Virus record (IMG/VR): IMGVR_UViG_3300046003_006038
Coordinates: 1 to 64,000 of that record
Source of the DNA: a virus
Lineage: Duplodnaviria; Heunggongvirae; Uroviricota; Caudoviricetes
DNA length: 64,000 nucleotides
Reading direction: 5' to 3' (one strand)
Part shown: in pieces, positions 24,814-42,533 of the stretch
How the letters are laid out: every line of letters starts with the position of its first letter
Numbering within the stretch: the stretch's first letter is position 1
Program-made: the position numbers and the translations under genes
The notes under the pieces: model-generated
Told to the model about the DNA's origin: nothing
The model's database searches: none
The model's input: the letters and a program-made list of their open reading frames with translations, nothing else

Positions 24814-26040
24814 TTAGTTCTTACATACTATTAGATTATTCTGATATTCTTCTAAAGAGTTAATAGTTAACTTAAATATATCTAGTTCAAACTCTCCTAC
24901 CTCTCCACTCTCTTTTATTATTTCCGGCAATTGTTGAATAATATTAAAGGATTGTTGAGTGAATTGTTTTGCATCAAACTCTAATACAATATCATTTTCT
25001 AACTTAGGATCGTTATACTCTATAGTATATATTCTCTTTGATAAGTCAAATTTAGTATTTAACTGCTCCTTGTCAATATAATGTGAGGTAATAACCTGCA
25101 TAGTATCGTCTATGTATATTCTATCGCACCAAGGTTCTAATACTTCTAGTACCTGTAAATTAGAGTTTTTAATTACATAGGCTATGTTATATTTCGGCGG
25201 AACTTTTGGCATCATAAGTTCATCATGTAGTACATTACTTCCCCATTTTCTCCACCACTCTCTGAATTTAATTGCTCTTAATGCTTTGTATTCTTCAGAG
25301 TCTTTTGGCTTATACCAAATTGTCCCATCTGGTAAAGGAATCTCAGCCTCTATCTCTAATCCATCTTTAAACCTACTTCCTCTACAAGTCATATGGTATG
25401 TCAAAGAATCTCTTGATTGTATTAAATCATATCCGGCTAAGTACATTCTATTGAAGATATCCGAGTCTTCTAATTCCATTGGAGCAAATAACTTGTCATG
25501 TCCTCCTATGGCTTGAAAGTCTTCTTTATTCATACACCATGGAGCAAAGATTCCATTTGTTGTTTGATCTTTGTATACAGTTTGACTCTCTTTTACAAAT
25601 TGTAAGAAGTCTTCTTTCTTAAACTCTTCCGGCTCTGTTCCAAACAGTCTTACAAACTTCTCAGGCCCTGGAGGATGTAGAGGCGGTTCAACTCTAGTAG
25701 CTGCTACAACTGTTTTATCTTTTAAATGCTTAAGTAAGTTCTCTACATATCCTGGAGCTACAACCATATCGGCGTGAAGTATGCTGAATACTTCTGTCTT
25801 AGATATCTCAACTCCTTTGTCATATAGAATGGTATGTCCTTGTCTTTCTGGACCTTCGTTTCTGTATTTAATTATGTTATCTCCTTTTAAGGATTGAATC
25901 CAATCCCAAGTACCATCTGTTGATGCATCGTCTAATAAAACAATATCATGCTGAGTTCCGTAATGCTCTTGTATAGAACCAACTGCTTGTTTTAAGTATT
26001 TTAAATTATTCCTGGAAGGAATTATAAAACTTATTCTCAT
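24814..26040 (-). CDS. glycosyltransferase family 2 (GT-A) with C-terminal extension
   Basis: RISFIIPSRNNLKYL...LLDDASTDGT (GT2 N-terminal signature, DxD-type). Confidence 0.65.
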   Translation of the reverse strand: MRISFIIPSRNNLKYLKQAVGSIQEHYGTQHDIVLLDDASTDGTWDWIQSLKGDNIIKYRNEGPERQGHTILYDKGVEISKTEVFSILHADMVVAPGYVENLLKHLKDKTVVAATRVEPPLHPPGPEKFVRLFGTEPEEFKKEDFLQFVKESQTVYKDQTTNGIFAPWCMNKEDFQAIGGHDKLFAPMELEDSDIFNRMYLAGYDLIQSRDSLTYHMTCRGSRFKDGLEIEAEIPLPDGTIWYKPKDSEEYKALRAIKFREWWRKWGSNVLHDELMMPKVPPKYNIAYVIKNSNLQVLEVLEPWCDRIYIDDTMQVITSHYIDKEQLNTKFDLSKRIYTIEYNDPKLENDIVLEFDAKQFTQQSFNIIQQLPEIIKESGEVGEFELDIFKLTINSLEEYQNNLIVCKN

Positions 26041-26807
26041 TTTAATTTATTATATACATTTTCAATTCCTTGCTCTAATCCGATAAAAGCTATTGGAAGC
26101 TCGGTAAAGGTCCCTATATAATTCTCTCCTGGTAGAGGATCTTCTATGTTAATTGGTACTTTATTTATTGATAAATGGTTATTTATGTAATTAGCTATTT
26201 TGCTTAATGATACTGTATCTTCATATATGCAGTCTACTTCTTTTAAAAGATCTTTACCCTCCATGTAATATACTATTGTAGAGATTAGATCAGGCATGTA
26301 TATAAAGTCCATTAACCTATCTTGGTATACTACCATAGGTTCGTTGTTAAGAACCTTTCTAATACTGGATTTAATAAATCGAGTATCGTTTTCATTTTCA
26401 TCAAACACTGCAAATACTCTTAAGGTATAGAAATCATCATACTTGTGAACTAGTTTATTGATAATATTTTTGCTATGACCATATGGAGTGTCCGGCAAAT
26501 ACCTTTCTGCTCCCGAACCTATATTGATTAGCTTCTTAAAGTGATCTTTTTTTGATAGTAAGTTATAGAACATAACTAAATTCCAGAACGATATAGTCTC
26601 ATCAGGATCTCTAGTATTAGCTACTCCTTTTATAGCAGTATGTATAACAACATCGAACTGCTTATTCTCAAAAAATTTATCTACAGAAGATTTATCAGTT
26701 AAGTCTAATTCATCTTTCCCAGGAGCTATTATATGGTACCTACTCCATAAAGTATTAGTAATACTTTTAGCAATATACCCTTTTCCTCCTGTAACTAATA
26801 TTCTCAT
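26037..26807 (-). CDS. NAD-dependent epimerase/dehydratase (SDR) family protein
   Basis: MRILVTGGKGYIAKS Rossmann GxxGxxG; start trimmed to MRILVTGG. Confidence 0.55.
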   Translation of the reverse strand: MRILVTGGKGYIAKSITNTLWSRYHIIAPGKDELDLTDKSSVDKFFENKQFDVVIHTAIKGVANTRDPDETISFWNLVMFYNLLSKKDHFKKLINIGSGAERYLPDTPYGHSKNIINKLVHKYDDFYTLRVFAVFDENENDTRFIKSSIRKVLNNEPMVVYQDRLMDFIYMPDLISTIVYYMEGKDLLKEVDCIYEDTVSLSKIANYINNHLSINKVPINIEDPLPGENYIGTFTELPIAFIGLEQGIENVYNKLK

Positions 26808-26808
26808 A

Positions 26809-27345
26809 TTACTTCTCTTTACTAAAATCCCCAAATTCAACTAAGATAGTATTTATGCCATCTACTCTATTTAGAGCTTTTTTATAAGCAGGTACAATAT
26901 CTTCAGGTTCAAATAACTCTACAACTTCTATATTACGATTCATCTGCCTGAAAGCCTCCGAGAAGTTTCCTTTGTGTTGACATTGAGGGTCAACTGGTCT
27001 TTCGCTACCTACTGCTACTCGTATAATAACTTTAGGATCTAACTTACCATTAGACATTTCAATAAACTTATCCAGGTGATTAACTATTTGATCAACTCCC
27101 ATAAGTAGGAAATTCCATCTAGGATATGTTGATACAGGTATCATGCCTTCAATTGCCATTCCATTTGCTAGTCCTGTTTGAAAATATTCGGCCACTGGAA
27201 GTTCTAATTTCTTTTCAGCTGGTAGGTGAGACATGGTATCAAATAGTCCAGTTCCTTCGTACTCTACTGCTTGACCTATAAAGAACGTCTTAGGATGTTC
27301 TGCTAACAAGCTCATTGCTTTCTGTAACTCTTCAAAGTATTTCAT
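26809..27345 (-). CDS. TPP-dependent enzyme, beta (pyrimidine-binding, transketolase/E1-beta-like) subunit
   Basis: FFIGQAVEYEGTGLFDTMSHL...AEYFQTGLANGMAIEGMIPV matches the transketolase Pyr-domain pattern. Confidence 0.55.
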   Translation of the reverse strand: MKYFEELQKAMSLLAEHPKTFFIGQAVEYEGTGLFDTMSHLPAEKKLELPVAEYFQTGLANGMAIEGMIPVSTYPRWNFLLMGVDQIVNHLDKFIEMSNGKLDPKVIIRVAVGSERPVDPQCQHKGNFSEAFRQMNRNIEVVELFEPEDIVPAYKKALNRVDGINTILVEFGDFSKEK

Positions 27346-27354
27346 ATCTCTATA

Positions 27355-27981
27355 TTAAAATTGAACTCTCATTCCTGCTCCGGCGTGAGGGTATTTATTA
27401 TTAGTATACTGATAGTATATTAAATTCTTCTGTCTTAACAGCCCTCCTGTATACTCTGATTCAAGATAATACGGTCTTTCTCTCTTCCAGATATCCGGTG
27501 TAGGAGTGCACACTGATTTTTTATTATCCTCTACAACAAAAGTTATTGGTAGGTCATGATTCAAACTGTACTTATAAGCTTCGTGAAATGCTCCTGTTTC
27601 GGCTGACATATCTCCTACCCAGCACCAAACTCTATTTGATTTTCCTTGAAGTTTAATTGCTAATGCAATACCTGCTGCTATGGAAGGAATACCTCCTACA
27701 ATAGAGCTGCATACAAATTTATACTCTGGAAGATTAACCACCATAGATTTCCCTTCTAGAATATTCTTTTTCATTACTTCAGCTGGAATTCCTTTTAATA
27801 ATCCTTGGTAATGGTTTCTCCAGGTACAGCACACCCAGTCATTTTCTACATCGACATCTTTAAACAATTCTATCATTAAATCCTCATTACCCGAATAGAG
27901 GTGTATAGGTGCTTTAATTTCACCCCTATTGAATGAATCCCCAATTTCTGTTTCAAATTGGATTAATTGTTCTCTTACCAT
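27355..27981 (-). CDS. TPP-dependent enzyme, alpha (PP-domain, transketolase/E1-alpha-like) subunit
   Basis: GDMSAETGAFHEAYKYSLNHDLPITFVVEDN is a TPP-binding GDG-X(25-30)-N motif. Confidence 0.6.
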   Translation of the reverse strand: MVREQLIQFETEIGDSFNRGEIKAPIHLYSGNEDLMIELFKDVDVENDWVCCTWRNHYQGLLKGIPAEVMKKNILEGKSMVVNLPEYKFVCSSIVGGIPSIAAGIALAIKLQGKSNRVWCWVGDMSAETGAFHEAYKYSLNHDLPITFVVEDNKKSVCTPTPDIWKRERPYYLESEYTGGLLRQKNLIYYQYTNNKYPHAGAGMRVQF

Positions 27982-28931
27982 ATAAATTTTTCTCTATAAT
28001 ATTCTACAATATACTTTAATTCAGTATCAAAATTAATTTGAGGCTTCCATCCTAATGCTCTCAACTTATCATCATTTAAAGCATATCGAACATCCTGCCC
28101 TTGTCTATCGTATGAGAAGTCTACAAAGTCTTCTAACATATAATCTTGATCTTTATTGTACAATATAAGAACTTTTTTGATAGTATCCAAATTACTTTGC
28201 TCAAATCCTCCACAGATATTAAAGATTTCATTCTGCACTCCTGATTCGATTATCTTCACAACAGCATTGGCTGTATCCTGAGCATGAAGCCAAGTTCTGA
28301 TTGGAGTACCGTTATTGTGTAAAGGAATCTTTTTGCCTAGCTTTAAATGCTTCAATGTTTTTGGAATTAGTTTTTCAGTATACTGCCCAATTCCGTAGTT
28401 GTTAGTTGGACGAACAATTACATATGGAAGGTTGTAAGTCCTACCCCATGCTGTTACAAGCATATCTGCTGCAGCTTTTGTAGCTGAATATGGATTGGAA
28501 GGTTTAAGTAAATCTGTTTCAACATGCTCTCCTTCTTCAATATCGCCATATACTTCATCTGTGCTAAAGTGGAGTAGTGTAGGTTTTGTTGAATGTTCTC
28601 CTCTATGATTCTTAATTAACTCTAATAGGTTATGAACTCCATTTACATTCGAAGATACAAACTCATCTGAATTAGCAATTGAATTACCTACGTGAGTCTC
28701 AGCTGCTGTATTGATTATATAATCACAATCATATAGAAACTTCAAATCGTTAATATCACAATCAACAAAAGAGAAGTTACTGTATTCTTTAAATTCTTTT
28801 AATAGAGTTTTATTGGCTGCATATGTTCCTTTATCAACTCCTTTAACATACCATCCTCTATCAAGGCATACTCTTGTTACATAGGATCCTATAAACCCTA
28901 GACAACCTGTTACGTAAACTACTTTCGTCAT
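27975..28931 (-). CDS. NDP-sugar 4,6-dehydratase (RfbB/dTDP-glucose 4,6-dehydratase-like SDR)
   Basis: VVYVTGCLGFIGS Rossmann; YSATKAAADMLVTAWGRTYNL (YxxxK); ~318 aa. Confidence 0.65.
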   Translation of the reverse strand: MTKVVYVTGCLGFIGSYVTRVCLDRGWYVKGVDKGTYAANKTLLKEFKEYSNFSFVDCDINDLKFLYDCDYIINTAAETHVGNSIANSDEFVSSNVNGVHNLLELIKNHRGEHSTKPTLLHFSTDEVYGDIEEGEHVETDLLKPSNPYSATKAAADMLVTAWGRTYNLPYVIVRPTNNYGIGQYTEKLIPKTLKHLKLGKKIPLHNNGTPIRTWLHAQDTANAVVKIIESGVQNEIFNICGGFEQSNLDTIKKVLILYNKDQDYMLEDFVDFSYDRQGQDVRYALNDDKLRALGWKPQINFDTELKYIVEYYREKFIW

Positions 28932-28932
28932 T

Positions 28933-29604
28933 TTATTCTTTATATAAGTGTTGTGAAAAATCTACTGCATCTACATAGTCCTGATACAGATTAAATACAC
29001 TCTTGTACTTTGAATCTATACCTGTGCCGATCCAAAATTCACATTGATGGCGTTCATCAAATATTAACGGCATCTCTTTTGGATGTTGTAATTTATTAAT
29101 GTGGCTTGCTCTTGTCCACCAAAAGTTCTGTGAGAAATGACGTACTGGGTTATATATCAGTTCAGCACCTACTACATCGTATTCTTTTAAGAACTCTAAA
29201 CTCTCCCTGTACCTAGTTACATTCCAGTGTAGTTGATATTTTCTGACATCTTCAATCCATTTATATTCTGGAACTTGTGTTGAATTGCTAGATCCTTTTG
29301 TATGTAGGTACAATATATTATCTGTTGGATTATACTTACAGTGTTTAATTATTTTATCTAGTGTTGGAAATTCCCAAGCATGTACATTTGTTCCGTTGTA
29401 ATTTATTTTACCCTTAGGTACATTAAACCTAATATTTGGATCCCCTAATAGTTCTAAATTAATTTCATCGACATCTGTATATATTTTTGAATCTAATATA
29501 TGTTGAGCTATTTCATCAACTATTGCTTGACATCTTCCATGGTTATTGTATCCATTCTTGTCTATCAGTAGGTTTGCTGCATGAATAAATATAATGTTTC
29601 TCAT
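28933..29604 (-). CDS. hypothetical protein in glycan locus
   Basis: ORF in track, translationally coupled. Confidence 0.55.
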   Translation of the reverse strand: MRNIIFIHAANLLIDKNGYNNHGRCQAIVDEIAQHILDSKIYTDVDEINLELLGDPNIRFNVPKGKINYNGTNVHAWEFPTLDKIIKHCKYNPTDNILYLHTKGSSNSTQVPEYKWIEDVRKYQLHWNVTRYRESLEFLKEYDVVGAELIYNPVRHFSQNFWWTRASHINKLQHPKEMPLIFDERHQCEFWIGTGIDSKYKSVFNLYQDYVDAVDFSQHLYKE

Positions 29605-30413
29605 ATTGCAGTCCAGGTATTTGGATAGTAATTTTTATTTATAAATTGACTTTCTTTGTCAGAAGGTCCAATATAGTCTTCCGGGCAAACAACTATTTTA
29701 TTTGGATTGTTGTTTAAATAAGCACCCCACCAACTAAAGCTAGAATTTGCAATTATGTTATGATCACATAAAGACATCATACACATATCTACATAATTTG
29801 AATTACCTTCACTAAAGTGTATATTATCCCCTACTAGTACTTCTTTACACCATTCTATATCGTCTGAGAATACTAATAGTTTAAAGTATGTAAATTTTTC
29901 TAAGAATATATTTATAGCTTCATTATAGTAATCTAGTGTAAGATTTAGTGAAGAAACTTCTAAATAATCTCCTCTTCTAAAATGTACAGAAACTATAGGG
30001 TAGTTCTCACCTTCTTTTACCTCTTCTACCTTACTAATAGCTTCAGCTAATATACTCTCCTTAAATTTAAAAGCATCCTTAATAAGATTTTCATACTTAT
30101 CCCAGTAGTGGTATAGGTGGAACCATCCCTGTATATCCCAATTAGTATTTGGATCTAGATTAAAAACTTCTTTATCACATATTTTCTCTTTAAGAGTGTA
30201 TATAGAGTGAGTTCCTTCTGAAATACTTTTGATTGGATGTTTCAAATCAAACGCTTCAAATAACCTTACTCCTCTAAACAGTTCCATATATTCTTTGAAG
30301 AATACAATATCACTACCTAAGTGTTTTGAGAGTGCCAGCAAGCCAGCGTACTGGCTCATCTGCGAACCAAACTGAGGCCCTATTGAGAGGTTTGTTTTTG
30401 TTATATAGTTCAT
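29601..30413 (-). CDS. GT11-family alpha-1,2-fucosyl/colitosyltransferase
   Basis: IVSVHFRRGDY and SSFSWWGAYL motifs are diagnostic of GT11 (FutC/WbsJ/WbgN). Start trimmed to MNYITK after the internal promoter at 30424-30462. Confidence 0.7.
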   Translation of the reverse strand: MNYITKTNLSIGPQFGSQMSQYAGLLALSKHLGSDIVFFKEYMELFRGVRLFEAFDLKHPIKSISEGTHSIYTLKEKICDKEVFNLDPNTNWDIQGWFHLYHYWDKYENLIKDAFKFKESILAEAISKVEEVKEGENYPIVSVHFRRGDYLEVSSLNLTLDYYNEAINIFLEKFTYFKLLVFSDDIEWCKEVLVGDNIHFSEGNSNYVDMCMMSLCDHNIIANSSFSWWGAYLNNNPNKIVVCPEDYIGPSDKESQFINKNYYPNTWTAI

Positions 30414-30423
30414 TATTATTTTA

Positions 30424-30462
30424 TCTTTTATTAATATACGAAATACTCTTCTACTATACAAC
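30424..30462 (-). promoter_or_regulatory. internal family-type promoter within glycan locus
   Basis: aatatacgaaatactcttctactatacaact (TTG-N20-TATATTAA on the minus strand). Confidence 0.4.
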
Positions 30463-31299
30463 TTTATAGTGATCGATAAGTTTTTGCACAATTTCATCAA
30501 TACTATATTCACAGTTGTATCCAAAATTTCTTAACTTTGTTGTATCCAAGTATGAATTTTTTACCTGTACGATATTGTGAAAATGTGTAGGTTCTATATT
30601 AATAATCTGAGAGTTTGAATTAGCTTTTTTAATTGCTTTTTTAATAATGTTTAAGAATAAGTAAGGTTTTCCGCTTCCTATATTTATAATCTCGTCTACA
30701 GGTGCATTCTCTATACAGTGGTGTATTGCTTTACATACATCATCTACGTAAATATAATCTCTAAGTACATTTCCTCCGTAATATAATTCTACGTCTCTAC
30801 CTTCAACAATTTCTTTAATTAAGAACTGTAGTGCATTTTTCTTTTTAGAAATTTTTTGATCTCCTTCTCCTAGTACATTTGCTAGTCTAAATATTCTGTA
30901 CTTTACATTATACGTATTACAAAAACTTATAATTAACTGTTCTGCACATCTCTTTGTAATAGAGTAAAAGCCTGTAGGATTACAGCTTAGGTCATCTTCT
31001 TTAAAAGGAGTCTTATCATTTTGTCCGTATACAAACCAGGAGCTAATAAAATTAAAAGTTGTATCTGGATTATCTTTTATATGCTCTAGAACATTTAATA
31101 AAACTTTTAAGTTTGTATCTACATCTACGTGTAGGTCTTTGTGTATATTATAATTGTCAATCGTACTAATAAAATACAATACTTCTTTTGATTGTGGCTT
31201 ATAGTCTAATCTTTCATTTATAATAACTTCATCTGAATATAATGAACAGTACCTGCTTCCTATGAATCCTGTTCCTCCAAAAATATTTACTTTTTCCAT
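30454..31299 (-). CDS. NAD-dependent epimerase/dehydratase (SDR) family protein
   Basis: VNIFGGTGFIGS; YSITKRCAE (YxxxK). Confidence 0.6.
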   Translation of the reverse strand: MEKVNIFGGTGFIGSRYCSLYSDEVIINERLDYKPQSKEVLYFISTIDNYNIHKDLHVDVDTNLKVLLNVLEHIKDNPDTTFNFISSWFVYGQNDKTPFKEDDLSCNPTGFYSITKRCAEQLIISFCNTYNVKYRIFRLANVLGEGDQKISKKKNALQFLIKEIVEGRDVELYYGGNVLRDYIYVDDVCKAIHHCIENAPVDEIINIGSGKPYLFLNIIKKAIKKANSNSQIINIEPTHFHNIVQVKNSYLDTTKLRNFGYNCEYSIDEIVQKLIDHYKVV

Positions 31300-31371
31300 A
31301 TAACTATTGTATTAAGTTTGCTTTACTAACATGTTGTAGAGGTTACCTCTATGTCTGGTAATTCTATTTTA

Positions 31372-32016
31372 CTATTCATATTGTTCTAATTTTGATATTT
31401 CGGTGCGTGCTGCTTCGTATAACTTTCCATGAAAGCCAAAAGTATTTTTTAAATTATATTCACATTCAGGTATTGCATGTTCTAGTGAAAATCTAGCTGC
31501 TACTTCAACCGGTGCATACTTACATCCATTCTGTTTAAAGTAGCCGTAATACGTGTTTGTTACTAGTACGTCGTTATGTGCTTCTGTATAAGGAATACTT
31601 TCTTCTAAGTTTAAAAATTTTTTACTCTTTAGTACAAATCCTCCATTACCTACTCTGTTCCTTTTACACCATTCTAATCCATCAGGCCAAGGTGCTCCTA
31701 TATAGTCGTATTTGAGAAAATCATCATCCCAGTTATGTGGATTAATAATAAATCCATCATCATGAATAGATAACATATACTCGTTATCAATATACTTAGG
31801 AAGAGTGTTTAAATGAAACCAATTCATTGTATTATGAGATTGCTTCTCTATTTCTATATACTCTATATGATCTGGAAGATTGGAAGGCCTGTAATGTGCA
31901 AGTAATTTTATAGAACCAAACTTTATCTGTTTTGAGCTATACAAAAGAGCTTTTACAGACTCCTCTGGGTTAACACAATTTACTGATATTAGATCTATTT
32001 TTGAAAGGTCTTTCAT
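31372..32016 (-). CDS. hypothetical protein in glycan locus (possible novel glycosyltransferase)
   Basis: ORF in track. Confidence 0.5.
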   Translation of the reverse strand: MKDLSKIDLISVNCVNPEESVKALLYSSKQIKFGSIKLLAHYRPSNLPDHIEYIEIEKQSHNTMNWFHLNTLPKYIDNEYMLSIHDDGFIINPHNWDDDFLKYDYIGAPWPDGLEWCKRNRVGNGGFVLKSKKFLNLEESIPYTEAHNDVLVTNTYYGYFKQNGCKYAPVEVAARFSLEHAIPECEYNLKNTFGFHGKLYEAARTEISKLEQYE

Positions 32017-32990
32017 TATATTGTCTTAAATAAGTTTTCTATATAATAATTCTCTATTTCCTTCTGTTTAACTGTACATCCATATGCCATATGAATTCCG
32101 TAACAGTTTCTTACGTATACTGGAGATCTATCAGTAATGTTTGCGTACATTGTTAACTGTCCTTCATCCCAATTATCAAAGAAAACTTTCTGTGCTTCTA
32201 AATAAAATTCTGTTTTTGCTATAAATAAATTATTACAGAAGTAAGGTGTTAGGTATTTTTCTAAAAAAAGTTCTGAGTTATTCAGTACAAGTTCTTTCTT
32301 CTCTGCTGCATGTCTAGCAATGTACATGTTGTAGTCGTAAGAGAATCTGGCAGGATGTACCCCTTTAACTATGCTGTAGAACCATGGTAGCCCTTCCCTT
32401 CCTTTTACAGGATTAATCCTATCTACTAACTTCCAATAGTCTTCTCCATTCCATGCACTTAATCCCTCTATGTACCTAAACACTTCAGAATAATTACATC
32501 CAAAAATATTCGGATCTATATTATCTTTCAGAAAAATTTTATATACATCCTCTTTTTCTTGTTCTGTTAAAAAATCTTGTAGAAATAACTCTACAGAAGG
32601 CATTCCATTTGATAATGTAGGAGCTAACACTGACACGGTAGGGTCATTTAGTATACCTCTATTTTCAATCATATAGTCCCAGACATGTCGATTTACAAAA
32701 ACATCATCATCCCATTTACAGAAATATTCTGTTGTTGTTTGTTGAGCTACTTGCATCTTATGTTCGTAGGCATCTGTTGGCATACTAGCTAGAGTAGCCT
32801 CTATGCCTGCTTCTACTACTGGGTATAATATTTCTTCCCAAAGTCTGTTATCATTTTCATGACAGTACACGTAAAGCTGTATTTCTTTCTTGTTACCTTC
32901 TTTAATGTTTACAAGTTCTTTTAAAGCTGCTTTTACTAAAGGTAGTCTGTATTTATTCTGTGAACTGTTAAATAAGTTAATCTGTATCAT
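32016..32990 (-). CDS. hypothetical protein in glycan locus
   Basis: ORF in track; ATGA overlap. Confidence 0.55.
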   Translation of the reverse strand: MIQINLFNSSQNKYRLPLVKAALKELVNIKEGNKKEIQLYVYCHENDNRLWEEILYPVVEAGIEATLASMPTDAYEHKMQVAQQTTTEYFCKWDDDVFVNRHVWDYMIENRGILNDPTVSVLAPTLSNGMPSVELFLQDFLTEQEKEDVYKIFLKDNIDPNIFGCNYSEVFRYIEGLSAWNGEDYWKLVDRINPVKGREGLPWFYSIVKGVHPARFSYDYNMYIARHAAEKKELVLNNSELFLEKYLTPYFCNNLFIAKTEFYLEAQKVFFDNWDEGQLTMYANITDRSPVYVRNCYGIHMAYGCTVKQKEIENYYIENLFKTI

Positions 32991-33777
32991 CTGGTAGTAA
33001 TTTGTACTGTAAATCTGTATTTAGAACTCTAGCAAAATAGTTTACATTAGAGTTAGTGCAACATAGTAACATGTTAGCTTTGGATAGTAAGTATGCTTCT
33101 ACAATTACATCTTCGCCTACATAGTACTTACTACATTTATAGTCATTAGCATAATGTAACGGGATATCATTATTGCTTCTAAAAGTTGCAGGATACTCCA
33201 CTACTTTATCGCCAAAAGCTTTCTTTATTGCATCTACTCTATTCTGCTCATCAGATGCTATGAAAAGCACATCGTACTCATCTATGTACTTTTTAATACG
33301 TTGAATATAGAAATCCATAGAAAGTTTATCTGGATGATCTGTACCTCTACAATGTACTCCTAATACTCTTTTTCCTTTAAAGTGAGTATTGTAAAAACTG
33401 TTAATTTTAGACTCTACATGAGGAAGAAGTTTTACGTACTTTTTTACTATTTCTCCATACTCTTTACGTTTAACTTTATAGTCTTCCGGGGTGGTGTATA
33501 TGTCCCTAAATTCACTAAACTCATCATGAAGTAATCCTACCTCTGATAAAATTTCAGAAGAAGTAGGCTTAGTGTCTGTGTGAGGTTGTTCAAAGTAGTA
33601 TTCCCAAACGTTCTCTATTTCTTGTTGACGGTACATTTCTTCATCGAAGTAGCAAGATTCTCTACCAAAATGTATGTAGTACTTATCGTTAGGGTAGTGG
33701 TACATTCCTCTTATTGTTTGCCAAATAAAAGCAAACATCCCTGAGTTGTGTTGTGTGGGGTGTAAATATCTGTACAT
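32977..33777 (-). CDS. putative fucosyltransferase-like glycosyltransferase (GT23/NodZ-like motif)
   Basis: GVHCRGTDH resembles the H(V/I)RRGD motif of GT-B fucosyltransferases; weak. Confidence 0.35.
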   Translation of the reverse strand: MYRYLHPTQHNSGMFAFIWQTIRGMYHYPNDKYYIHFGRESCYFDEEMYRQQEIENVWEYYFEQPHTDTKPTSSEILSEVGLLHDEFSEFRDIYTTPEDYKVKRKEYGEIVKKYVKLLPHVESKINSFYNTHFKGKRVLGVHCRGTDHPDKLSMDFYIQRIKKYIDEYDVLFIASDEQNRVDAIKKAFGDKVVEYPATFRSNNDIPLHYANDYKCSKYYVGEDVIVEAYLLSKANMLLCCTNSNVNYFARVLNTDLQYKLLPDDTD

Positions 33778-35432
33778 TAATTAATTAATTTTTTAAAATA
33801 CTTATTAAATAACTGATCATTGTCGTAAGCGTACTGTTTAGCTTTTTCAAAATTCTCTTTAATATATTCCTCTCTGGAGAGGTAATCCTGTTCTGTTAGG
33901 TTGTTAATTATTTCAAGAAGCTCTTCCTCTGTATTAAATATAAGAAAACCTTTTGTATTAAAAAACTCACTAATATTTTTACAACCTCTGTAAATTGGAA
34001 TAACCCCTGTTAGAAAACAGTCTAATATTTTTTCTGTAAAATAATTATCATGTACTCCATTTTCAATTGCTATAGAAAATTTATAATCTCTTAGCCCTTC
34101 AATTTTACCTTGAACTTCTCTTATGCCCACTCCGTATAGATCTACATTAGGTATTTTAAGGTCAATAATCTTTTGAGCACATCCTACCCTAAACCTATGC
34201 CCCTCTGTCATTCCTTTGTTAGAAGTAATAAAAGAGATATGTTTCGGTTTATCTCTGTATATCTGAATTAAGGTACTATCCTGAAGAAGTGGATGTTCTG
34301 CTCTGTGTACATTTTTATTTAAAACAGCTTCGTAACCTCCATTTCTAAACACGGCATTCGGTAACTTAAGTAACTCTTTATCGAAAGTTAGTATTAGGTC
34401 AAACATTTGGCTATTCTCTTGCACAGCAGTATATACTTCGTTCTGGGAGAGTAGGTGTGGAGCTTCATGTACATCTGCTACAATCAGTCCCCTATTTATT
34501 TTTATCTCACCTTTTACAAATCTTAGTATTTCTGTATCTTCAATAAGAGTTATGTCAAATTCCCCATCTTGTAAATTATACGTATAAGAAAATGTCTGAG
34601 GTATACTATTCTTTTCTCTAAAGCTACCTACTATGTTTATTTGAGGTAATTTTTCACCTGACAGGTTCTCCTTATACTTCTTTCTATTTCTAATTTCTAT
34701 TTCGTACTTACTGTTATCAATACTTTCTCTTTCGTGAGTACGTACTTGATTAGCCTTACTGTGGTTGTACACACAGTCGTAAAAATCTACTACTTGAATC
34801 TTCTCTTTAGGGCACATCTCCATACACGGATATTGGAAAGCTAAATCTGCTGCATGCCAATAATACTCCCCATCTTGTAAAGACCTTAAATCCTCTAGCT
34901 TAACTGCTTGCAATAGAAATGCCCTATAGGTCCTTAAGTGAGAAGCTCTCCAGTGATCTTGACGGTACATTTTATATTTATGTACAAAATCTGAATGCTC
35001 TGTTGATTGAGGATATGGTAGTGTTGATTCTGCTTCTGGTCCATTCCATACAATGAATCCTCCATATGTCATCCAGCAGTCTTTTTCATTATAAAAAGCA
35101 TTAAGCTTTTCTAAAACTGTTTCATCATATAACCAGTCATCCCCATCTAAGTGAATTACTATCTCTTCAGGATCCTCTATATAATCGTTTAGGTTATGGA
35201 AGTAGTTATACATAGCTCCTTTATTTTGAGAATTTTTTATAACATTCCAATTAGGAAGCTCTCCTACAACTTCTTTTACTTTTTCATAAGTATTATCTGT
35301 AGAAGCATCATCTATATAGGTAACTTTGTAGTTTGTATATGTTTGGTTTAGAATACTTGCAAGATTGTATTCAATCCACTCTTCATTGTTATAGGAGGGT
35401 GTTATTATTCTAAACTTATTTTGCTTTTCCAT
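33777..35432 (-). CDS. two-domain glycosyltransferase: N-terminal GT2 + C-terminal GT10-like (alpha-1,3-fucosyltransferase motif)
   Basis: N-terminus IITPSYNNEEWIEYNLASILNQTY...IDDASTDNT (GT2). C-terminus YKFSIAIENGVHDNYFTEK matches GT10 (YKFxLAFENS..DYVTEK). Confidence 0.6.
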   Translation of the reverse strand: MEKQNKFRIITPSYNNEEWIEYNLASILNQTYTNYKVTYIDDASTDNTYEKVKEVVGELPNWNVIKNSQNKGAMYNYFHNLNDYIEDPEEIVIHLDGDDWLYDETVLEKLNAFYNEKDCWMTYGGFIVWNGPEAESTLPYPQSTEHSDFVHKYKMYRQDHWRASHLRTYRAFLLQAVKLEDLRSLQDGEYYWHAADLAFQYPCMEMCPKEKIQVVDFYDCVYNHSKANQVRTHERESIDNSKYEIEIRNRKKYKENLSGEKLPQINIVGSFREKNSIPQTFSYTYNLQDGEFDITLIEDTEILRFVKGEIKINRGLIVADVHEAPHLLSQNEVYTAVQENSQMFDLILTFDKELLKLPNAVFRNGGYEAVLNKNVHRAEHPLLQDSTLIQIYRDKPKHISFITSNKGMTEGHRFRVGCAQKIIDLKIPNVDLYGVGIREVQGKIEGLRDYKFSIAIENGVHDNYFTEKILDCFLTGVIPIYRGCKNISEFFNTKGFLIFNTEEELLEIINNLTEQDYLSREEYIKENFEKAKQYAYDNDQLFNKYFKKLIN

Positions 35433-36376
35433 TTATCTATACTGTAATATTTCTTGTAATTTTCCTTAGACGTTGTACTACATTTCTGATAAAACTCTTT
35501 ATCATCTCTTAACCTTTCAGCCAGCATTACTGCTTTCTCTACATCCTCTACATCTACTGCTAGGTCTGGATGACAAAGTCTTTGTGTGTCTACTTTCTCA
35601 TTTCCTATACAAGGTATACCGAAGTAAGCACAATTCAAACTAAATGTACCAGCTGCAACGGTTGGCATAAGGTGTACAGCGTATTTGAATGAACTTAACT
35701 GTTCCATCCAATCTGTCCACATAACTCTTGGTAAATGATTTATCAACTGATCCTCTCCCTCTCTCATTGCATGAGAAGTCTGTCCCCATATTGGAACATC
35801 AAACCTCTGTGCTACTGTAAAGCTTTCCATACCTCCATACCATCTAGCAAAATTACCTCCTATAATAACTTTTTCTTCTCTAATAGGTTGAATATCTTCT
35901 ACTATAGAATCAATCATTAGAGTAGGAATAACGTGCACAGGTACGTTAGTAAACATTCCTTTATAGTATTTTACATCGTGTTGGTTATGTGCAAAGATAC
36001 CGTCTGAGGAGATGAGCATATTATAGAATAATACTTGATCGATCATTTTATAATCATTCCACCACCAGTGAGGTCCTTCCTGAACTATATACACTTTTTT
36101 ATTGGTAAGCTTTAATCTCTCTACTGGCTCTTTTATTAAAAGTTCACTTACTGGATTCTGATCATCTGCAAGTTGACTTCCTTCTGCACTTAAGTATAAC
36201 TTTCCTTTAGGAAAAATAATAAAGACATGATCATATCCCTCTACTTCTTGAAAGTGATGTATGTACCTATGATCGGCATTTAAAGCATGCATCCAAGCAA
36301 ACTCTGTTCGCATATTAGAGTGGTTAGAGGGAATCTTTCCCTCAAAACCCATCTCTGTTAGGAATGCTATCTTCAT
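35405..36376 (-). CDS. hypothetical protein in glycan locus
   Basis: ORF in track. Confidence 0.55.
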   Translation of the reverse strand: MKIAFLTEMGFEGKIPSNHSNMRTEFAWMHALNADHRYIHHFQEVEGYDHVFIIFPKGKLYLSAEGSQLADDQNPVSELLIKEPVERLKLTNKKVYIVQEGPHWWWNDYKMIDQVLFYNMLISSDGIFAHNQHDVKYYKGMFTNVPVHVIPTLMIDSIVEDIQPIREEKVIIGGNFARWYGGMESFTVAQRFDVPIWGQTSHAMREGEDQLINHLPRVMWTDWMEQLSSFKYAVHLMPTVAAGTFSLNCAYFGIPCIGNEKVDTQRLCHPDLAVDVEDVEKAVMLAERLRDDKEFYQKCSTTSKENYKKYYSIDKWKSKISLE

Positions 36377-36377
36377 A

Positions 36378-37688
36378 TTATTTATTGAAGAACTTATCTA
36401 CGATTGTTTCTATATATTCAATTTGCTCTAAAGTAATAACTGGAGAGCATCCTAAGAAGAAAGTATCTGTTGTTACTTTTCTTGATACTGGATATTTTTC
36501 AATTACTTCTTTAGGGTCAATTAAATGAGAGTATCCTGGCTGAAGCATAATGTTACCTGCAAAGTAAGGTCTTGTTTGAATCTTATTTGCTTCTAAGTAT
36601 TGACAGAACTCAGCTCTTGTAAAGTCCATTCCATCTTTAACTGTTAATGCAACTGCAAACCAATCTGGATCTGATTTATCAGTAGCTTTAGGAAGGATAA
36701 ACTTATCTTCATACTTTTTAAAGATGTCAACAATTGCTTTATGATTTCTTCTTCTTATTACTCCAATCTCTTCTAACTTACCTAACTGAACATTACCCAT
36801 TGCAGCTTGTAATTCAGTTGGTTTTAAATTGTAACCAATTTCTTCATAAGTATATTTATGGTCAAATATTTCATTAGGCAAACTTGGTAACCAATTGCTG
36901 AATCTTATTCCGCATGAACCGCACTCTAAAGCATTTGCCTTACCTTGACAGTAACATCCTCTACCCCAGTCTCTAAAACTTCTTAAGATTTTTTCTAGCT
37001 GTGGATCACTACATGCTACAAATCCTCCTTCACCCATCGTAATGTGATGTGCTGGATAGAATGAACATGAGGACATTTTACCGAATGATCCTAACATCTT
37101 ACCATTATAAGTTGTTCCTAAAGCATCACAGCAATCTTCTAATAAGATTAAATCGTATTTGTTTACAATTTCCATCAATCGATCCATGTTAGGTGGATTA
37201 CCTAATACGTGAGCAAATGTAACCACTTTAGCATCTGGATGATCAATACATGCTTGCTCTACTTGATCTAAATCTAAGTTTAAAGATTCTAATTCAATAT
37301 CAACAAAGATTGGTGTAAAGCCTGCTTGAATGGTAGGACTTAAAGTAGCTGGGAATCCAGCAATTGGAGTAATTACTTTCGTACCTTTTGGTAAGTTCAT
37401 TCCTCTTTTAGATGTTAAAGCTAACATCATTAGTAGATTAGCACTAGAACCGCTATTAACAATAACTCCGGTCTTGTGTCCTAGTTTTTTAGGAAACTTT
37501 CTTTCGAACATTGCTCCTTCTTTTCCTAAAACCAACCAACCTTCTAGCATAGTCTTAACTACAGCTTGATATTCTTTTTCGTCAAAATAAGGTCCGGCAT
37601 ACTGAACTAAGTCCTCTCCTGCTACCCACTTTTTTTCACTGTTCTTTTTTGTAATGTGCTCTTGTACTAAGCTTAAAATTTGATCCAT
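36378..37688 (-). CDS. NDP-4-keto-6-deoxyhexose 3-dehydratase (ColD/E1 family, DegT/DnrJ/EryC1 fold)
   Basis: SFYPAHHITMGEGG has His where aminotransferases of this fold have the PLP-Lys. CC...57 aa...CYC-X8-C-X2-C cysteine pattern as in E1-type [2Fe-2S] dehydrases. Start trimmed to MDQILSL after the promoter at 37698-37745. Confidence 0.6.
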   Translation of the reverse strand: MDQILSLVQEHITKKNSEKKWVAGEDLVQYAGPYFDEKEYQAVVKTMLEGWLVLGKEGAMFERKFPKKLGHKTGVIVNSGSSANLLMMLALTSKRGMNLPKGTKVITPIAGFPATLSPTIQAGFTPIFVDIELESLNLDLDQVEQACIDHPDAKVVTFAHVLGNPPNMDRLMEIVNKYDLILLEDCCDALGTTYNGKMLGSFGKMSSCSFYPAHHITMGEGGFVACSDPQLEKILRSFRDWGRGCYCQGKANALECGSCGIRFSNWLPSLPNEIFDHKYTYEEIGYNLKPTELQAAMGNVQLGKLEEIGVIRRRNHKAIVDIFKKYEDKFILPKATDKSDPDWFAVALTVKDGMDFTRAEFCQYLEANKIQTRPYFAGNIMLQPGYSHLIDPKEVIEKYPVSRKVTTDTFFLGCSPVITLEQIEYIETIVDKFFNK

Positions 37689-37697
37689 ATAACTGAT

Positions 37698-37745
37698 TTT
37701 ATTTGTTTTATTAATATATGAAATTATCTTATTGCTGGCAACTAT
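37698..37745 (-). promoter_or_regulatory. internal family promoter
   Basis: aatatatgaaattatcttattgctggcaact. Confidence 0.5.
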
Positions 37746-38721
37746 TTTTATAATAATTCTCCCAGTATTCAATCATTTCATCCAACATACTTTCAAAAGT
37801 ATATTCATGCTTCCATCCTGTTGTTTCAACTAACTTAGAGCAATCTCCTTTCAAGTCATGTAATTCTTCTGGACGTAAGAATTTTTCATCCTGCTTAACA
37901 TATTCCTTCCAATCTAATCCTAGCTTACTAAATACATATTCACATAACTCTTGTACCGAATGTGATACTCCTGTTGAGCAGATAAAATCATCTGGCTTGT
38001 CTTGTTGAAGTATTAACCACATTGCATAAACATAGTCCTTAGCATGACCCCAGTCTCTTGTGGCATCTAAGTTCCCTAGCTTTAATTCATTCGATAGACC
38101 TAATTTAATCTTAACTGCTTCTTTACATACTTTATTTGTAACAAAGTTTGTACCTCTGCGAGGTGATTCATGATTAAATAGGATACCGTTTGATACAAAC
38201 ATACCATAAGAGTTACGGTAATTTCTACTAATGTTATATGCAAATACCTTAGCACATCCGTAAGGTGATACTGGATTGAGTGGTGTAGTTTCTCTTTGAA
38301 ATCTATCCTCATCAATACTATTTCCAAACATTTCTGAAGATGATGCTTGGTATATTTTTGTTTTAGGGGATACAAGCCTTACTGCTTCAAGGATATTTAA
38401 TGTACCTATTCCTGTTGTATTGGCTGTATATAGGGGTTGGTCGAAGGATATTCTAACATGCGATTGTGCTGCTAAATTATATAATTCATCTGGCTGTACC
38501 TTTGCAACAACCCTTACCAGTGATGCTAGGTCTGTAAGGTCAGCGTACTCTAGCTTGATACTACTGTATACTGCATCTAATCTTGCTGTTTGATTTTCAG
38601 CTACAGAATTCCTCTTTACTGTTCCCCATACTTCATATCCCTTTTCTAGGAGTAATTCAGCTAAGTATGATCCGTCTTGTCCGTTTATTCCTGTTATAAG
38701 TGCTACTTTATTTTCTCGCAT
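37729..38721 (-). CDS. gmd: GDP-mannose 4,6-dehydratase
   Basis: KVALITGINGQDGSYLAELLLEKGYEVWG and NGILFNHESPRRG; near-collinear with E. coli Gmd. Confidence 0.85.
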   Translation of the reverse strand: MRENKVALITGINGQDGSYLAELLLEKGYEVWGTVKRNSVAENQTARLDAVYSSIKLEYADLTDLASLVRVVAKVQPDELYNLAAQSHVRISFDQPLYTANTTGIGTLNILEAVRLVSPKTKIYQASSSEMFGNSIDEDRFQRETTPLNPVSPYGCAKVFAYNISRNYRNSYGMFVSNGILFNHESPRRGTNFVTNKVCKEAVKIKLGLSNELKLGNLDATRDWGHAKDYVYAMWLILQQDKPDDFICSTGVSHSVQELCEYVFSKLGLDWKEYVKQDEKFLRPEELHDLKGDCSKLVETTGWKHEYTFESMLDEMIEYWENYYKNSCQQ

Positions 38722-39616
38722 TATCGTAATTTTCTATAAACCATTTAACTGTTTCTTTTATCCCTTGTTCAATTGAAGTGTACTTAAAGTCTGGAAGATA
38801 TCTTTTTACCTTTTCATTTGAAGAAGGTTTTCTAAATTGTCCATCTGGCTTATCTGTTTCAAAAATAATATTTCCTTTATAATTAAACTCCTCAGCTATT
38901 AGCCCTACCAAGTTTTTAATACTTATTTCCTCTGAGGTTGTAAATATGATTGGTTCTTCTTCGTCGTAATTCTCAACAGCCCATTTAGCTAATTCAGCTA
39001 CATCTTTAGAGTAGATAAATTCTCTTAAAGGCTTCCCCGTACCCCATACTTTGAAGTCTGTTTTATTTTGTATTGCTAAATACATTTTATGTAGAAGCAT
39101 CGGAACTACATGTCCATGTTCTAAAGAGAAGTTATCATTTGGTCCGTATATGTTTGTTGGAATTACAGAAGTATATTTCAATCCATACTGCTCTCTATAG
39201 GCTCTAATTTGTATATCTGCTAGACGTTTAGCATAGGCATAAGGATAGTTTGAACTGTGAGGAAATCCATTATGTACTTGGTCTTCTGTTAGAGGATAGT
39301 TTACTTTGTCTGGAAATACGCAGGTAGATAAAAATGATACTAGATTTGTAACTCCAGCCAATCTAGCTGATTCAATAACATTTGTATTGATCATTACATT
39401 ATCATATAAGTACTCTCCTTTGTACTTCATATTTCCTCCAAGACCTCCTACCTTTCCTGCACAGTGAATAACGTGAGTTGGTTTATGCCATTCAAACGCC
39501 TTTAGAGTTTCTTCTGGGTTGGTTAAATTATACTCTCTTCCTAATTTTACATCAGCATCAATAGCCGATCCTACCAATCCTTTTCCTCCTGTTACTAATA
39601 GTTTAGAGTGTGTCAT
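38708..39616 (-). CDS. GDP-L-fucose synthase-like 3,5-epimerase/4-reductase (Fcl/ColC family)
   Basis: LLVTGGKGLVGSAI; SNYPYAYAKRLADIQIRAY; IPTNIYGPNDNF; VWGTGKPLREF - collinear with E. coli Fcl. Confidence 0.8.
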   Translation of the reverse strand: MTHSKLLVTGGKGLVGSAIDADVKLGREYNLTNPEETLKAFEWHKPTHVIHCAGKVGGLGGNMKYKGEYLYDNVMINTNVIESARLAGVTNLVSFLSTCVFPDKVNYPLTEDQVHNGFPHSSNYPYAYAKRLADIQIRAYREQYGLKYTSVIPTNIYGPNDNFSLEHGHVVPMLLHKMYLAIQNKTDFKVWGTGKPLREFIYSKDVAELAKWAVENYDEEEPIIFTTSEEISIKNLVGLIAEEFNYKGNIIFETDKPDGQFRKPSSNEKVKRYLPDFKYTSIEQGIKETVKWFIENYDNARK

Positions 39617-40217
39617 AGTAATTATTTTGTTTTTCTTGTCTGTCGATTGTCTTTGGATGGTATAAGGCCCATTCCTCTTCTACCGGAAGCATACCATGTA
39701 TCTTAAATCCTTCTAATACTTCGTGTACTTTATTTTTCCATCTTATATGAGGAGCATTCTTATAGATTCTCATTTGCCAATCAGCCCAGTTGACCCATCC
39801 TTTTTCATTCACATGCCATCCCCACTTCTGAATATGTTCTTGAGTTAAACCCTCTACAGTATTTACTCTAGGGATTCTAAGCATATCGACATCATTAGTC
39901 TTCAGCATTTCAGGAAGATTTTGTATCAAATTGATATGAGGAATTTCATCAGCATCTATATTGAAGATATAATCTCCTGTACAGTATGATGTTAGTAAGT
40001 TTTTCCAATTAGCAAAATGATTTTCAAAATCATGAACTGCTACTGTAGTTTGGTGTGCTATTGAGGTTAGGTAGTCTTTTACTATCTGTGTTCCGTTCTT
40101 CTCATCAAATAGGATTACTATCTCATCTTCTGTACGTTTGTTGGAAAGGAGGAAAGAAACTAAACGTTTAATTTCCTCCAATTCATTACAAACTGTTATT
40201 GCATAACTAATTTTCAT
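39603..40217 (-). CDS. glycosyltransferase family 2 (small)
   Basis: ISYAITVCNELEEI...DADE (GT2-like, DxD). Confidence 0.55.
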   Translation of the reverse strand: MKISYAITVCNELEEIKRLVSFLLSNKRTEDEIVILFDEKNGTQIVKDYLTSIAHQTTVAVHDFENHFANWKNLLTSYCTGDYIFNIDADEIPHINLIQNLPEMLKTNDVDMLRIPRVNTVEGLTQEHIQKWGWHVNEKGWVNWADWQMRIYKNAPHIRWKNKVHEVLEGFKIHGMLPVEEEWALYHPKTIDRQEKQNNYYDTL

Positions 40218-40258
40218 ACTTAAATATATGAAATTTATTCTTTATCTGCAACTTCTAC
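40218..40258 (-). promoter_or_regulatory. family promoter heading the glycan locus
   Basis: cttaaatatatgaaatttattctttatctgcaact. Confidence 0.5.
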
Positions 40259-40693
40259 ATCAAAAAATCCTATTACTTCTAAGGCATCCATAAAATCTCT
40301 TTGACCAAATATTTGAAGGTTTCCCATATCCATCTTATGTGTTTGCCCTTTAGGGAAGTTTGCTTTTTCTTCCTCTACAATTTCGATAGCTTTTACTGCA
40401 GACCACATCCAATTATCTTTTGATGTACCGTCTAAGAATACCATTCCTTTACCTGGGATAGTGATTGTGGCTGGAAGCCATACCTTACCTGAATCATCTG
40501 TGTATAAGAGATCTTTGTATAGTTCCGGTGATGCTTCTAAGGTTTTGTTTACCAAATCTCCTCCCTCAACCATTAAGGTTGAAGTTGAATATCCGCAACC
40601 AAAGCAAAAGCTTGTTGTTACTTCTTCTGTTACTGCTTGTTCATAGCAAGCATTTCCTCCACAGTGTGGACAGTCTACCATTTTTTCTTCCAT
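40235..40693 (-). CDS. zinc-ribbon protein
   Basis: CPHCGG...C..FCFGCG cysteine pairs. Confidence 0.5.
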   Translation of the reverse strand: MEEKMVDCPHCGGNACYEQAVTEEVTTSFCFGCGYSTSTLMVEGGDLVNKTLEASPELYKDLLYTDDSGKVWLPATITIPGKGMVFLDGTSKDNWMWSAVKAIEIVEEEKANFPKGQTHKMDMGNLQIFGQRDFMDALEVIGFFDVEVADKE

Positions 40694-41235
40694 TATACTT
40701 TTTTAGTTATATACCAGGTATCATCATCTTCAGAGTACCCTTTATTAAATTCAAACTCACTACTATTTAATTTTCTAAACATGTTTTGAAAATAACTTAA
40801 TCTATCATCTTCAAGACCATCTCCATCATAAGGTTCAAATTTTATACCCTCACTATCAGTATTATTTAAAAAAGGAATGATTTCACTATTCATTACTTTT
40901 TGTAAAAATATTGCTTTAGGTAATCGATTTGGATCATTATCATCCCACTTAAACTGCTCTTCAGGAGTAGGTGCATTTAGATTTCCAAATTTCAATTCCC
41001 AAAAATTATCACTTGGATCATATACTAACCTAACTTCAAAAGGAGAACTATCATTAGTTCCTCTAAATTCTTTTGGTTTGAATATTATAATATTACCTTG
41101 GTTTAATTTTCTTACCCCCCATTGAGATATTTCAGTAAGGATGTATTGTTTTGTAGCTTCTTTCTTTTCTGTTAAGTTTGTATACTTACCTAATGACTGA
41201 TAAACTTCAGTTGCTAGTATTGTTAAAGCTCTCAT
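40693..41235 (-). CDS. hypothetical protein
   Basis: ORF in track. Confidence 0.55.
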   Translation of the reverse strand: MRALTILATEVYQSLGKYTNLTEKKEATKQYILTEISQWGVRKLNQGNIIIFKPKEFRGTNDSSPFEVRLVYDPSDNFWELKFGNLNAPTPEEQFKWDDNDPNRLPKAIFLQKVMNSEIIPFLNNTDSEGIKFEPYDGDGLEDDRLSYFQNMFRKLNSSEFEFNKGYSEDDDTWYITKKV

Positions 41236-42531: not shown

Positions 42532-42533
42532 AA

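Follow-up and report, generated by a model that had tools for sequence, protein, structure and literature searches.

The 64,000-nucleotide stretch described here (positions 1–64,000 of IMG/VR virus record IMGVR_UViG_3300046003_006038, a member of the Caudoviricetes; hereafter the window) encodes a compact two-subunit thiamine diphosphate (ThDP, or TPP) enzyme within a sugar locus. Its alpha and beta subunits correspond to the diphosphate-binding (PP) and pyrimidine-binding (Pyr) domains of the E1 component of 2-oxoacid dehydrogenases, and the pair belongs to a large family of similarly small proteins. With a slightly better than even likelihood, the pair is a ThDP carboligase that places a two-carbon (C2) unit, most likely from pyruvate, on a 4-keto-6-deoxyhexose, with a short-chain dehydrogenase/reductase (SDR) then reducing the branch. 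The new element is that a minimal E1-derived and probably carboligating ThDP enzyme is, judged by sequence, widespread in phage and cellular glycan islands. The alpha and beta genes are flanked by two sugar genes:

27975–28931, minus strand: RmlB-like nucleoside diphosphate (NDP)-hexose 4,6-dehydratase, 318 aa (TIGR01181 and Pfam GDP_Man_Dehyd)
27355–27981, minus strand: compact E1-alpha-like subunit, 208 aa, ThDP diphosphate-binding (PP) domain only (Pfam E1_dh)
26809–27345, minus strand: compact E1-beta-like subunit, 178 aa, ThDP pyrimidine-binding (Pyr) domain only (Pfam Transket_pyr)
26037–26807, minus strand: divergent extended SDR, 256 aa (Pfam Epimerase, 9.7e-21; RmlD_sub_bind, 3.5e-14)

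The alpha and beta genes are complete minus-strand open reading frames (ORFs) with no frameshifts or internal stops. All four genes are tightly packed, with the dehydratase stop codon overlapping the alpha start codon (ATGGTAA), a 9 nt gap between alpha and beta, and the SDR ATG 1 nt past the beta stop codon. The SDR is taken to start at this ATG (26807), instead of at the TTG (26840) in the program-made ORF list. From the gene arrangement, the alpha/beta pair is predicted to be translationally coupled to the 4,6-dehydratase.

The alpha subunit matches Pfam E1_dh (E = 9e-16) with residues 6–161 aligned to profile positions 6–169 of 300, and a profile of the alpha family matches human pyruvate dehydrogenase (PDH) E1-alpha over residues 44–216 (E = 3e-24). 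The alignment with the human protein spans the PP-domain core, including the HL histidine, the R-x-H segment and the Mg/ThDP motif; the latter reads G123-D124-M125…N153 (GDM…N) and has the same spacing as the GDG…NN of human E1-alpha. In an alignment of 24 diverse members of the family, H27, G123, N153 and G201 never vary, and conservation is at least 90% for D124, E151 and H199; R55, H57 and a C-terminal YPHxG motif (containing H199 and G201) are also conserved in the family. The AlphaFold model has a predicted local distance difference test score (pLDDT) of 95.0, and its top Foldseek matches in the PDB are all E1-alpha subunits, with TM-scores of 0.6–0.75 normalized to the query (TMq) and ~0.4 normalized to the target (TMt), ~40% of the target being covered. 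Full-length E1-alpha proteins are about 320–400 aa, and the C-terminal third, the region of the active-site His loop, is missing from the window protein; an hhalign alignment with a canonical 436-aa E1-alpha ends at residue 168.

The beta subunit matches Pfam Transket_pyr (E = 2.5e-6) and aligns to residues 19–161 of human E1-beta. Glu53 (PVAE) pairs with the human PISE glutamate and is invariant in alignments of 25 and 28 sequences, and the ‘QH’ histidine of E1-beta is kept (Q123-H124, invariant in the family). The invariant residues Q56, R76 and N89-H90 are not found in canonical E1-beta. The AlphaFold model (pLDDT 87.2) matches the N-terminal domain of E1-beta in the PDB (TMq 0.83–0.87, rmsd 2.3 Å), with a TMt of ~0.47 that reflects coverage of ~47% of the target. 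A Pfam scan gives no match to Transketolase_C, and the protein stops after the Pyr domain. In E1-beta this C-terminal domain docks the peripheral-subunit-binding domain of E2. A PP and a Pyr domain jointly make a complete ThDP active site, and the two subunits would together bind the cofactor.

The closest sequences and structures are thus those of the pyruvate, branched-chain 2-oxoacid and acetoin dehydrogenase E1 components (alpha2beta2), with which the window pair has the PP and Pyr cores, the GDx…N motif, the Pyr-domain Glu and the ‘QH’ His in common. However, it is about half their size, lacks an E2-binding domain, is situated in a glycan context, and scores far below the cut-offs of the NCBIfam models for PDH E1-alpha (PDH_E1_alph_y; 77.7 bits against 393.85) and pyruvate dehydrogenase E1 beta (49.3 bits against 321). 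Pfam scans of the window ORFs find no lipoyl, E2 or E3 genes. The pair is not a canonical E1, since the E1-beta C-terminal domain, a full-length E1-alpha, an equivalog-level score and linkage to E2/E3 are all missing. Split transketolases and 1-deoxyxylulose-5-phosphate synthase (DXS) have the same PP-then-Pyr order and give weak profile matches, but these are much weaker than those to E1 (DXP_synthase_N, 21.4 bits over 61 residues with a cut-off of 21.2; transketolase model NF004559, 27 bits against a cut-off of 488), and some of the cellular loci with the pair also encode true split transketolases, as distinct genes. A true transketolase or DXS is rejected, the matches being weak and partial and Transketolase_N and Transketolase_C both missing.

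These results bear on a preliminary description of the window, which had placed a minimal two-subunit ThDP enzyme at 26809–27981 between SDR and dehydratase genes; the two complete ORFs with E1_dh and Transket_pyr domains are just such an enzyme. It was called transketolase/E1-like, of which the E1 half stands and the transketolase half does not, the nearest family being the 2-oxoacid dehydrogenase E1 components. Similarly, the PP-domain cofactor motif and the Pyr domain that it reported are both present, although the motif reads GDM…N and not GDG…N.

The compact form is abundant. The alpha sequence has 1,668 homologue clusters, and the best 120 of these are 77–91% identical and all except two are 208–209 aa; among representatives at 50% identity there are 95 with E ≤ 1e-30, mostly of 200–220 aa with some fused forms of ~400 aa. 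For beta, a profile search gives at least 7,935 clusters, almost all with a length of ~178 aa. At least 563 viral contigs in IMG/VR contain a relative, and a scan of GTDB (one genome per species, using a 6-sequence alignment) identifies 75 loci in SAR11/Pelagibacter, Prochlorococcus, Candidate Phyla Radiation (CPR) bacteria, DPANN archaea, Chloroflexota, Verrucomicrobiota, Omnitrophota and others. The PLSDB plasmids contain canonical full-length E1-alpha only (≤32% identity) and no compact members. There is no significant match among the BFVD viral structures, the best plausible one being a 192-aa ‘transketolase’ of Campylobacter phage CP21 (E = 0.011). Ratios of nonsynonymous to synonymous substitution (dN/dS) between the window and two relatives are 0.06–0.09 (alpha) and 0.12 (beta), synonymous sites being close to saturation, and both genes are under strong purifying selection. 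Because the models are confident, the clusters number more than 1,600 for alpha and more than 7,900 for beta, and dN/dS is low, the pair represents a large family of compact ThDP enzymes whose existence is far beyond chance.

In cyanophages S-SM2 (L002:8971–10179) and P-TIM68 (L003:9049–10194) and in ten cellular loci (including L064, L068, L072–L076, L078 and L079), alpha and beta are fused into a single protein of ~400 aa. Homologues are annotated as ‘pyruvate dehydrogenase E1 component (alpha subunit)’ or ‘hypothetical protein’, and the fused cyanophage form as ‘transketolase central region-containing protein’ (PHROG 34187, function unknown). The literature on the cyanophage ‘transketolase central region’, on phage ThDP sugar enzymes, and on E1 or acetoin dehydrogenase genes in O-antigen and capsule loci yielded no function for the compact form.

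Gene order around the pair is strongly conserved. In all 75 related viral loci with enough flanking sequence beta is directly downstream of alpha, and it is followed by a homologue of the window's 256-aa SDR in 63. An RmlB-like dehydratase is situated no more than 2 kb upstream of alpha in 49 of these loci (directly adjacent in 37), and the full four-gene cassette is present in 41. Genes were also called and clustered in 74 other loci, nearly all from cellular genomes, in most of which beta is again directly downstream of alpha. Recurrent neighbors there are an extended SDR (51 loci, directly flanking in 30), a B12-radical-SAM enzyme (22), a GHMP kinase (20), a DegT aminotransferase (19), a nucleotidyltransferase (16), a GmhA-like SIS isomerase (14), an RmlC-like epimerase (14), a short SDR (12), and a TPP enzyme of the acetohydroxyacid synthase (AHAS)/YerE type (11), together with PfkB kinases, glycosyltransferase family 2 (GT2) proteins and split transketolases. 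The 20 commonest neighbor families include no E2, E3, lipoyl or phosphoenolpyruvate (PEP) mutase genes. The compact pair, whether split or fused, is tied exclusively to nucleotide-sugar loci.

Two settings are seen in the gene-order map. The split pair lies amid GDP-heptose-type genes and 4-keto-sugar tailoring enzymes, and the fused form is nearly always found in the order zinc-dependent alcohol dehydrogenase (Zn-ADH), alpha-beta, PfkB kinase, (haloacid dehalogenase-type phosphatase), SDR and GmhA-like SIS isomerase. The surroundings of the fused form appear from gene content to be a fixed ADP-heptose-type set, unlike the cassette of the window. The usual order is also departed from in a 735-kb uncultured megaphage (LR756501.1, 322608–324811), in which beta comes first and is ~1.1 kb from alpha. 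In L022, L036, L042, L049, L052 and L077 (SAR11 and other cellular genomes) an AHAS-like TPP enzyme and the N and C halves of a split transketolase form a module near the pair, such that some glycan loci encode three kinds of ThDP enzyme; the transketolase of this module could be a source of sedoheptulose-7-phosphate.

The flanking genes of the window point to a deoxysugar pathway. The dehydratase matches TIGR01181 (dTDP-glucose 4,6-dehydratase) with E = 6.7e-91 and 304.7 bits, under the equivalog cut-off of 365.1, as well as Pfam GDP_Man_Dehyd (1e-56), and has STDEVYG and YSATK (YxxxK) motifs; it is presumed to supply the 4-keto-6-deoxyhexose acceptor. The SDR begins with MRILVTGG, contains the Rossmann motif MRILVTGGKGYIA and YGHSK (YxxxK), and is a member of PHROG 540 (nucleotide-sugar epimerase). 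It is presumed to reduce either the branch carbonyl or a ring keto group.

We propose that the pair is a minimal heteromer derived from a 2-oxoacid dehydrogenase E1 from which the parts coupling E1 to the lipoyl-E2 core have been removed, and that it would act as a stand-alone carboligase in the four-gene cassette. The natural fusions and strict adjacency suggest that alpha and beta assemble. In the predicted pathway, the RmlB-like enzyme would turn host NDP-glucose, probably dTDP-glucose, into NDP-4-keto-6-deoxyglucose, and alpha/beta would decarboxylate a 2-oxoacid, most likely pyruvate, to give hydroxyethylidene-ThDP. As there is no E2-docking domain or lipoyl partner, this intermediate would either pass to a carbonyl acceptor or be protonated. 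Carboligation onto NDP-4-keto-6-deoxyglucose is the most economical proposal because its C-4 ketone is the sole carbonyl made by the cassette; joining of the C2 unit to this ketone would yield a 4-C-acetyl-6-deoxyhexose, an eight-carbon branched sugar with a tertiary alcohol. The loss of the E1-alpha loops and of the beta C-terminal domain may open the site to a bulky NDP-sugar. The downstream SDR would then act like YerF and Pau7, reducing the acetyl carbonyl to a 1-hydroxyethyl branch, and one of the phage glycosyltransferases would use the branched sugar. The suggestion in the preliminary description that a C2 unit is transferred onto a keto-sugar is consistent with the coupling to the dehydratase, the conserved SDR and the E1-type precedents (PMC12247030, PMC4425429), and the chemistry is put forward on that basis.

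Functionally, the pair most resembles the sugar-branching E1-type enzymes AviB1/AviB2, Pau11/Pau12, AlmDI/AlmDII, EvdU5/EvdS3 and KbDH-alpha/beta (‘alphaKADH2’), a likeness drawn from subunit type and gene context. Each is a two-subunit E1-alpha/beta ThDP enzyme in a deoxysugar pathway that starts with an NDP-hexose 4,6-dehydratase. They place a pyruvate-derived C2 unit onto a C-3 or C-4 keto-sugar, as shown for KbDH and proposed for the others, and ketoreduction is often the next step (PMC12247030; PMC4425429; PMC4753412; PMC10338323). However, these enzymes serve actinobacterial secondary metabolites, whereas the compact pair is found in surface-glycan-type loci of phages, SAR11, Prochlorococcus, CPR and DPANN. 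A cell-surface glycan locus in which a keto-sugar supplier, a ThDP carboligase and an NAD(P)H reductase act in turn is also seen for YerE/YerF (yersiniose A) and for ErwE and MygE, YerE-like enzymes of branched lipopolysaccharide sugars (PMC9306805), but YerE is a single-chain flavoenzyme of the AHAS/decarboxylase superfamily with TPP_enzyme_N/M/C domains and the window pair is of the E1 superfamily. A 2025 review associates YerE-like enzymes with lipopolysaccharide (LPS) and E1-type enzymes with antibiotics, and names viruses as unexplored (PMC12247030).

Several observations weigh against C2 transfer onto a 4-keto-6-deoxyhexose. The compact family contains no characterized member, and donor, acceptor and product are read from gene context. 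Characterized sugar-branching enzymes of the E1 type have full-length subunits (Pau11, 325 aa; Pau12, 345 aa; PMC4425429), compared with 208 and 178 aa here. The hhalign alignment of alpha ends short of the conserved YPHxG His, which is only a candidate equivalent of the E1-alpha active-site His. There is no nucleotidyltransferase in the window's locus, and the nucleotide carrier is accordingly only presumed. A 4,6-dehydratase signature is present within six genes of the pair in just 19 of the 74 cellular loci, so not all members of the family would have a 4-keto-6-deoxy acceptor. Lastly, four close immuto-like relatives (L005–L008) carry a 597-aa AHAS/YerE-type TPP enzyme (L005:8201–9994) between the RmlB-like dehydratase and alpha; it contains TPP_enzyme_N/M/C but falls under every acetolactate-synthase equivalog cut-off. 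If this neighbor does the branching, alpha/beta would do something else.

Some of these observations are shared with an alternative in which the enzyme class and the sugar pathway are the same and the chemistry is different, which we regard as less probable though a serious contender. The pair could transfer a hydroxyacetyl (glycolyl) or longer acyl group from hydroxypyruvate, a ketose or a longer 2-oxoacid, add to an aldehyde (DXS-like or acyloin-type), or cleave an alpha-hydroxyketone; the SDR or a Zn-ADH partner would form or remove the carbonyl. Each of these reactions is known in this superfamily of ThDP enzymes; addition of the hydroxyacetyl branches of miharamycin and amipurimycin has been proposed for transketolases, and AcoAB-type E1 cleaves acetoin (PMC12247030). 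The AHAS/YerE-type enzymes of L005–L008 and 11 of the 74 cellular loci would allow a division of labor, the fused form adjoins Zn-ADH and ADP-heptose-type genes and not a 4,6-dehydratase, and both the paucity of recognizable dehydratases near the cellular pairs and the beta-specific invariants Q56, R76 and H90, missing from canonical E1-beta, are in keeping with a different reaction. However, the only carbonyl-making enzyme coupled to the pair in the window is the 4,6-dehydratase, whose product has a ring ketone and no aldehyde, and the characterized sugar-pathway E1-type enzymes use pyruvate and form C2 branches only, according to the same review (PMC12247030).

Two further explanations are far less probable. 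The preliminary description had offered a phosphonopyruvate or sulfopyruvate decarboxylase for phosphonate or sulfonate decoration as the other option, and this is now very improbable. Glycan loci can encode small TPP decarboxylases of two subunits, and the beta model weakly resembles the split 168-aa TPP decarboxylase AzcB/C (9u8q, TMq ~0.6). However, a search for a PEP mutase partner finds none in the scanned ORFs of the window, as among the common cellular neighbors, and the top structural matches are all E1. The domain order is PP then Pyr, with E1_dh and Transket_pyr, and not the Pyr-then-PP order expected in TPP_enzyme_N/C proteins; Pfam scans of the pair give 16.7 bits for TPP_enzyme_C, under the cut-off of 21.9, and no match to TPP_enzyme_N or TPP_enzyme_M. 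That the genes are a decayed or captured fragment of a host pyruvate or acetoin dehydrogenase E1, or an auxiliary gene of central metabolism, is scarcely credible, although homologues are automatically annotated as PDH E1 alpha and the best curated models are those of PDH E1. Scores fall far under the equivalog cut-offs, the E2-binding domain is missing, and the pair invariably occurs in sugar loci, in no case alongside E2/E3. Readings as a remnant or PDH fragment fall because of the constant lengths (208–209 and 178 aa across thousands of homologues), the dN/dS of 0.06–0.12, the size of the family and the sugar-locus context; the genes are neither ordinary PDH E1 fragments lacking a glycan association nor frameshifted remnants, either of which would have undercut the preliminary description.

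More broadly, and with a likelihood a little short of even, the compact pair may constitute an unrecognized structural class of ThDP enzyme: an E1-derived PP+Pyr heteromer or fusion of ~390 residues without accessory domains, building C-acyl branches or performing other C–C chemistry on NDP-keto-hexoses and NDP-heptoses. C-branched sugars of eight or nine carbons would in that case be widespread, and so far unseen, in the hypervariable surface glycans of SAR11, Prochlorococcus and CPR/DPANN and in phages of marine and freshwater bacteria. Were carboligation onto the 4-keto-6-deoxyhexose confirmed, ThDP-dependent sugar branching, hitherto limited to a few LPS types and actinomycete antibiotics, would extend to the glycan islands of the most abundant marine bacteria and of their phages; such islands are thought to govern phage recognition (bioRxiv 10.64898/2026.04.03.716430). 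The phage would make a branched deoxysugar for itself or for remodeling of the host surface, and a tertiary-alcohol-forming carboligase of ~390 residues would be a minimal scaffold of interest for biocatalysis. The labels under which the family now goes, ‘pyruvate dehydrogenase E1’, ‘transketolase central region’ and unknown (PHROG 34187), mislead in metabolic reconstructions and catalogues of auxiliary metabolic genes.

The window is related to Flavobacterium phage vB_FspM_immuto (L001); both flanks of its sugar locus are syntenic with immuto and 84–86% identical to it in DNA sequence. The interior of the locus (~26–40 kb; 26000–40100) has no DNA match among deposited phages including immuto, and the sole match to the locus in a megablast search of deposited phages is at its GT2 edge, in immuto. 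At the same site immuto has different sugar genes with no TPP enzyme, and the interior of the glycan island is wholly swapped between the two despite flanks that are 84–86% identical. By analogy with bacterial O-antigen loci, which it resembles, the island appears to behave as a hypervariable cassette site. A second contig, L089 (IMGVR_UViG_3300024549_000306, 32 kb, from IMG/VR), encodes an alpha subunit and dehydratase 100% identical to those of the window and an SDR 99% identical, and probably derives from the same phage population. The remaining features of the island are:

24814–43976, minus strand: variable glycan island, with Pfam scans identifying GT2, GT11, a GT2+GT10 fusion, DUF5672, Gmd, an Fcl-like SDR, a DegT aminotransferase and GT1-like genes, and several genes without a family match
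29601–30524: GT11, fucosyltransferase-like
33777–35432: GT2+GT10 fusion, fucosyltransferase-like
36378–37772: GDP-mannose 4,6-dehydratase
37729–38721: Fcl-like SDR
38708–39616: DegT aminotransferase

The last five genes suggest a second phage-encoded GDP-6-deoxyhexose branch, of the fucose or perosamine type. Four island genes (28933–29604, 32016–32990, 35405–36376 and 40693–41235) have no Pfam match, and the 223-aa protein directly upstream of the dehydratase matches neither Pfam nor PHROG. Elsewhere in the window, at 56768–57694 and 62219–62926, are genes for a QueF-like nitrile reductase and a GTP cyclohydrolase I, which suggest a 7-deazaguanine (preQ) pathway; this pathway serves DNA modification in some phages.

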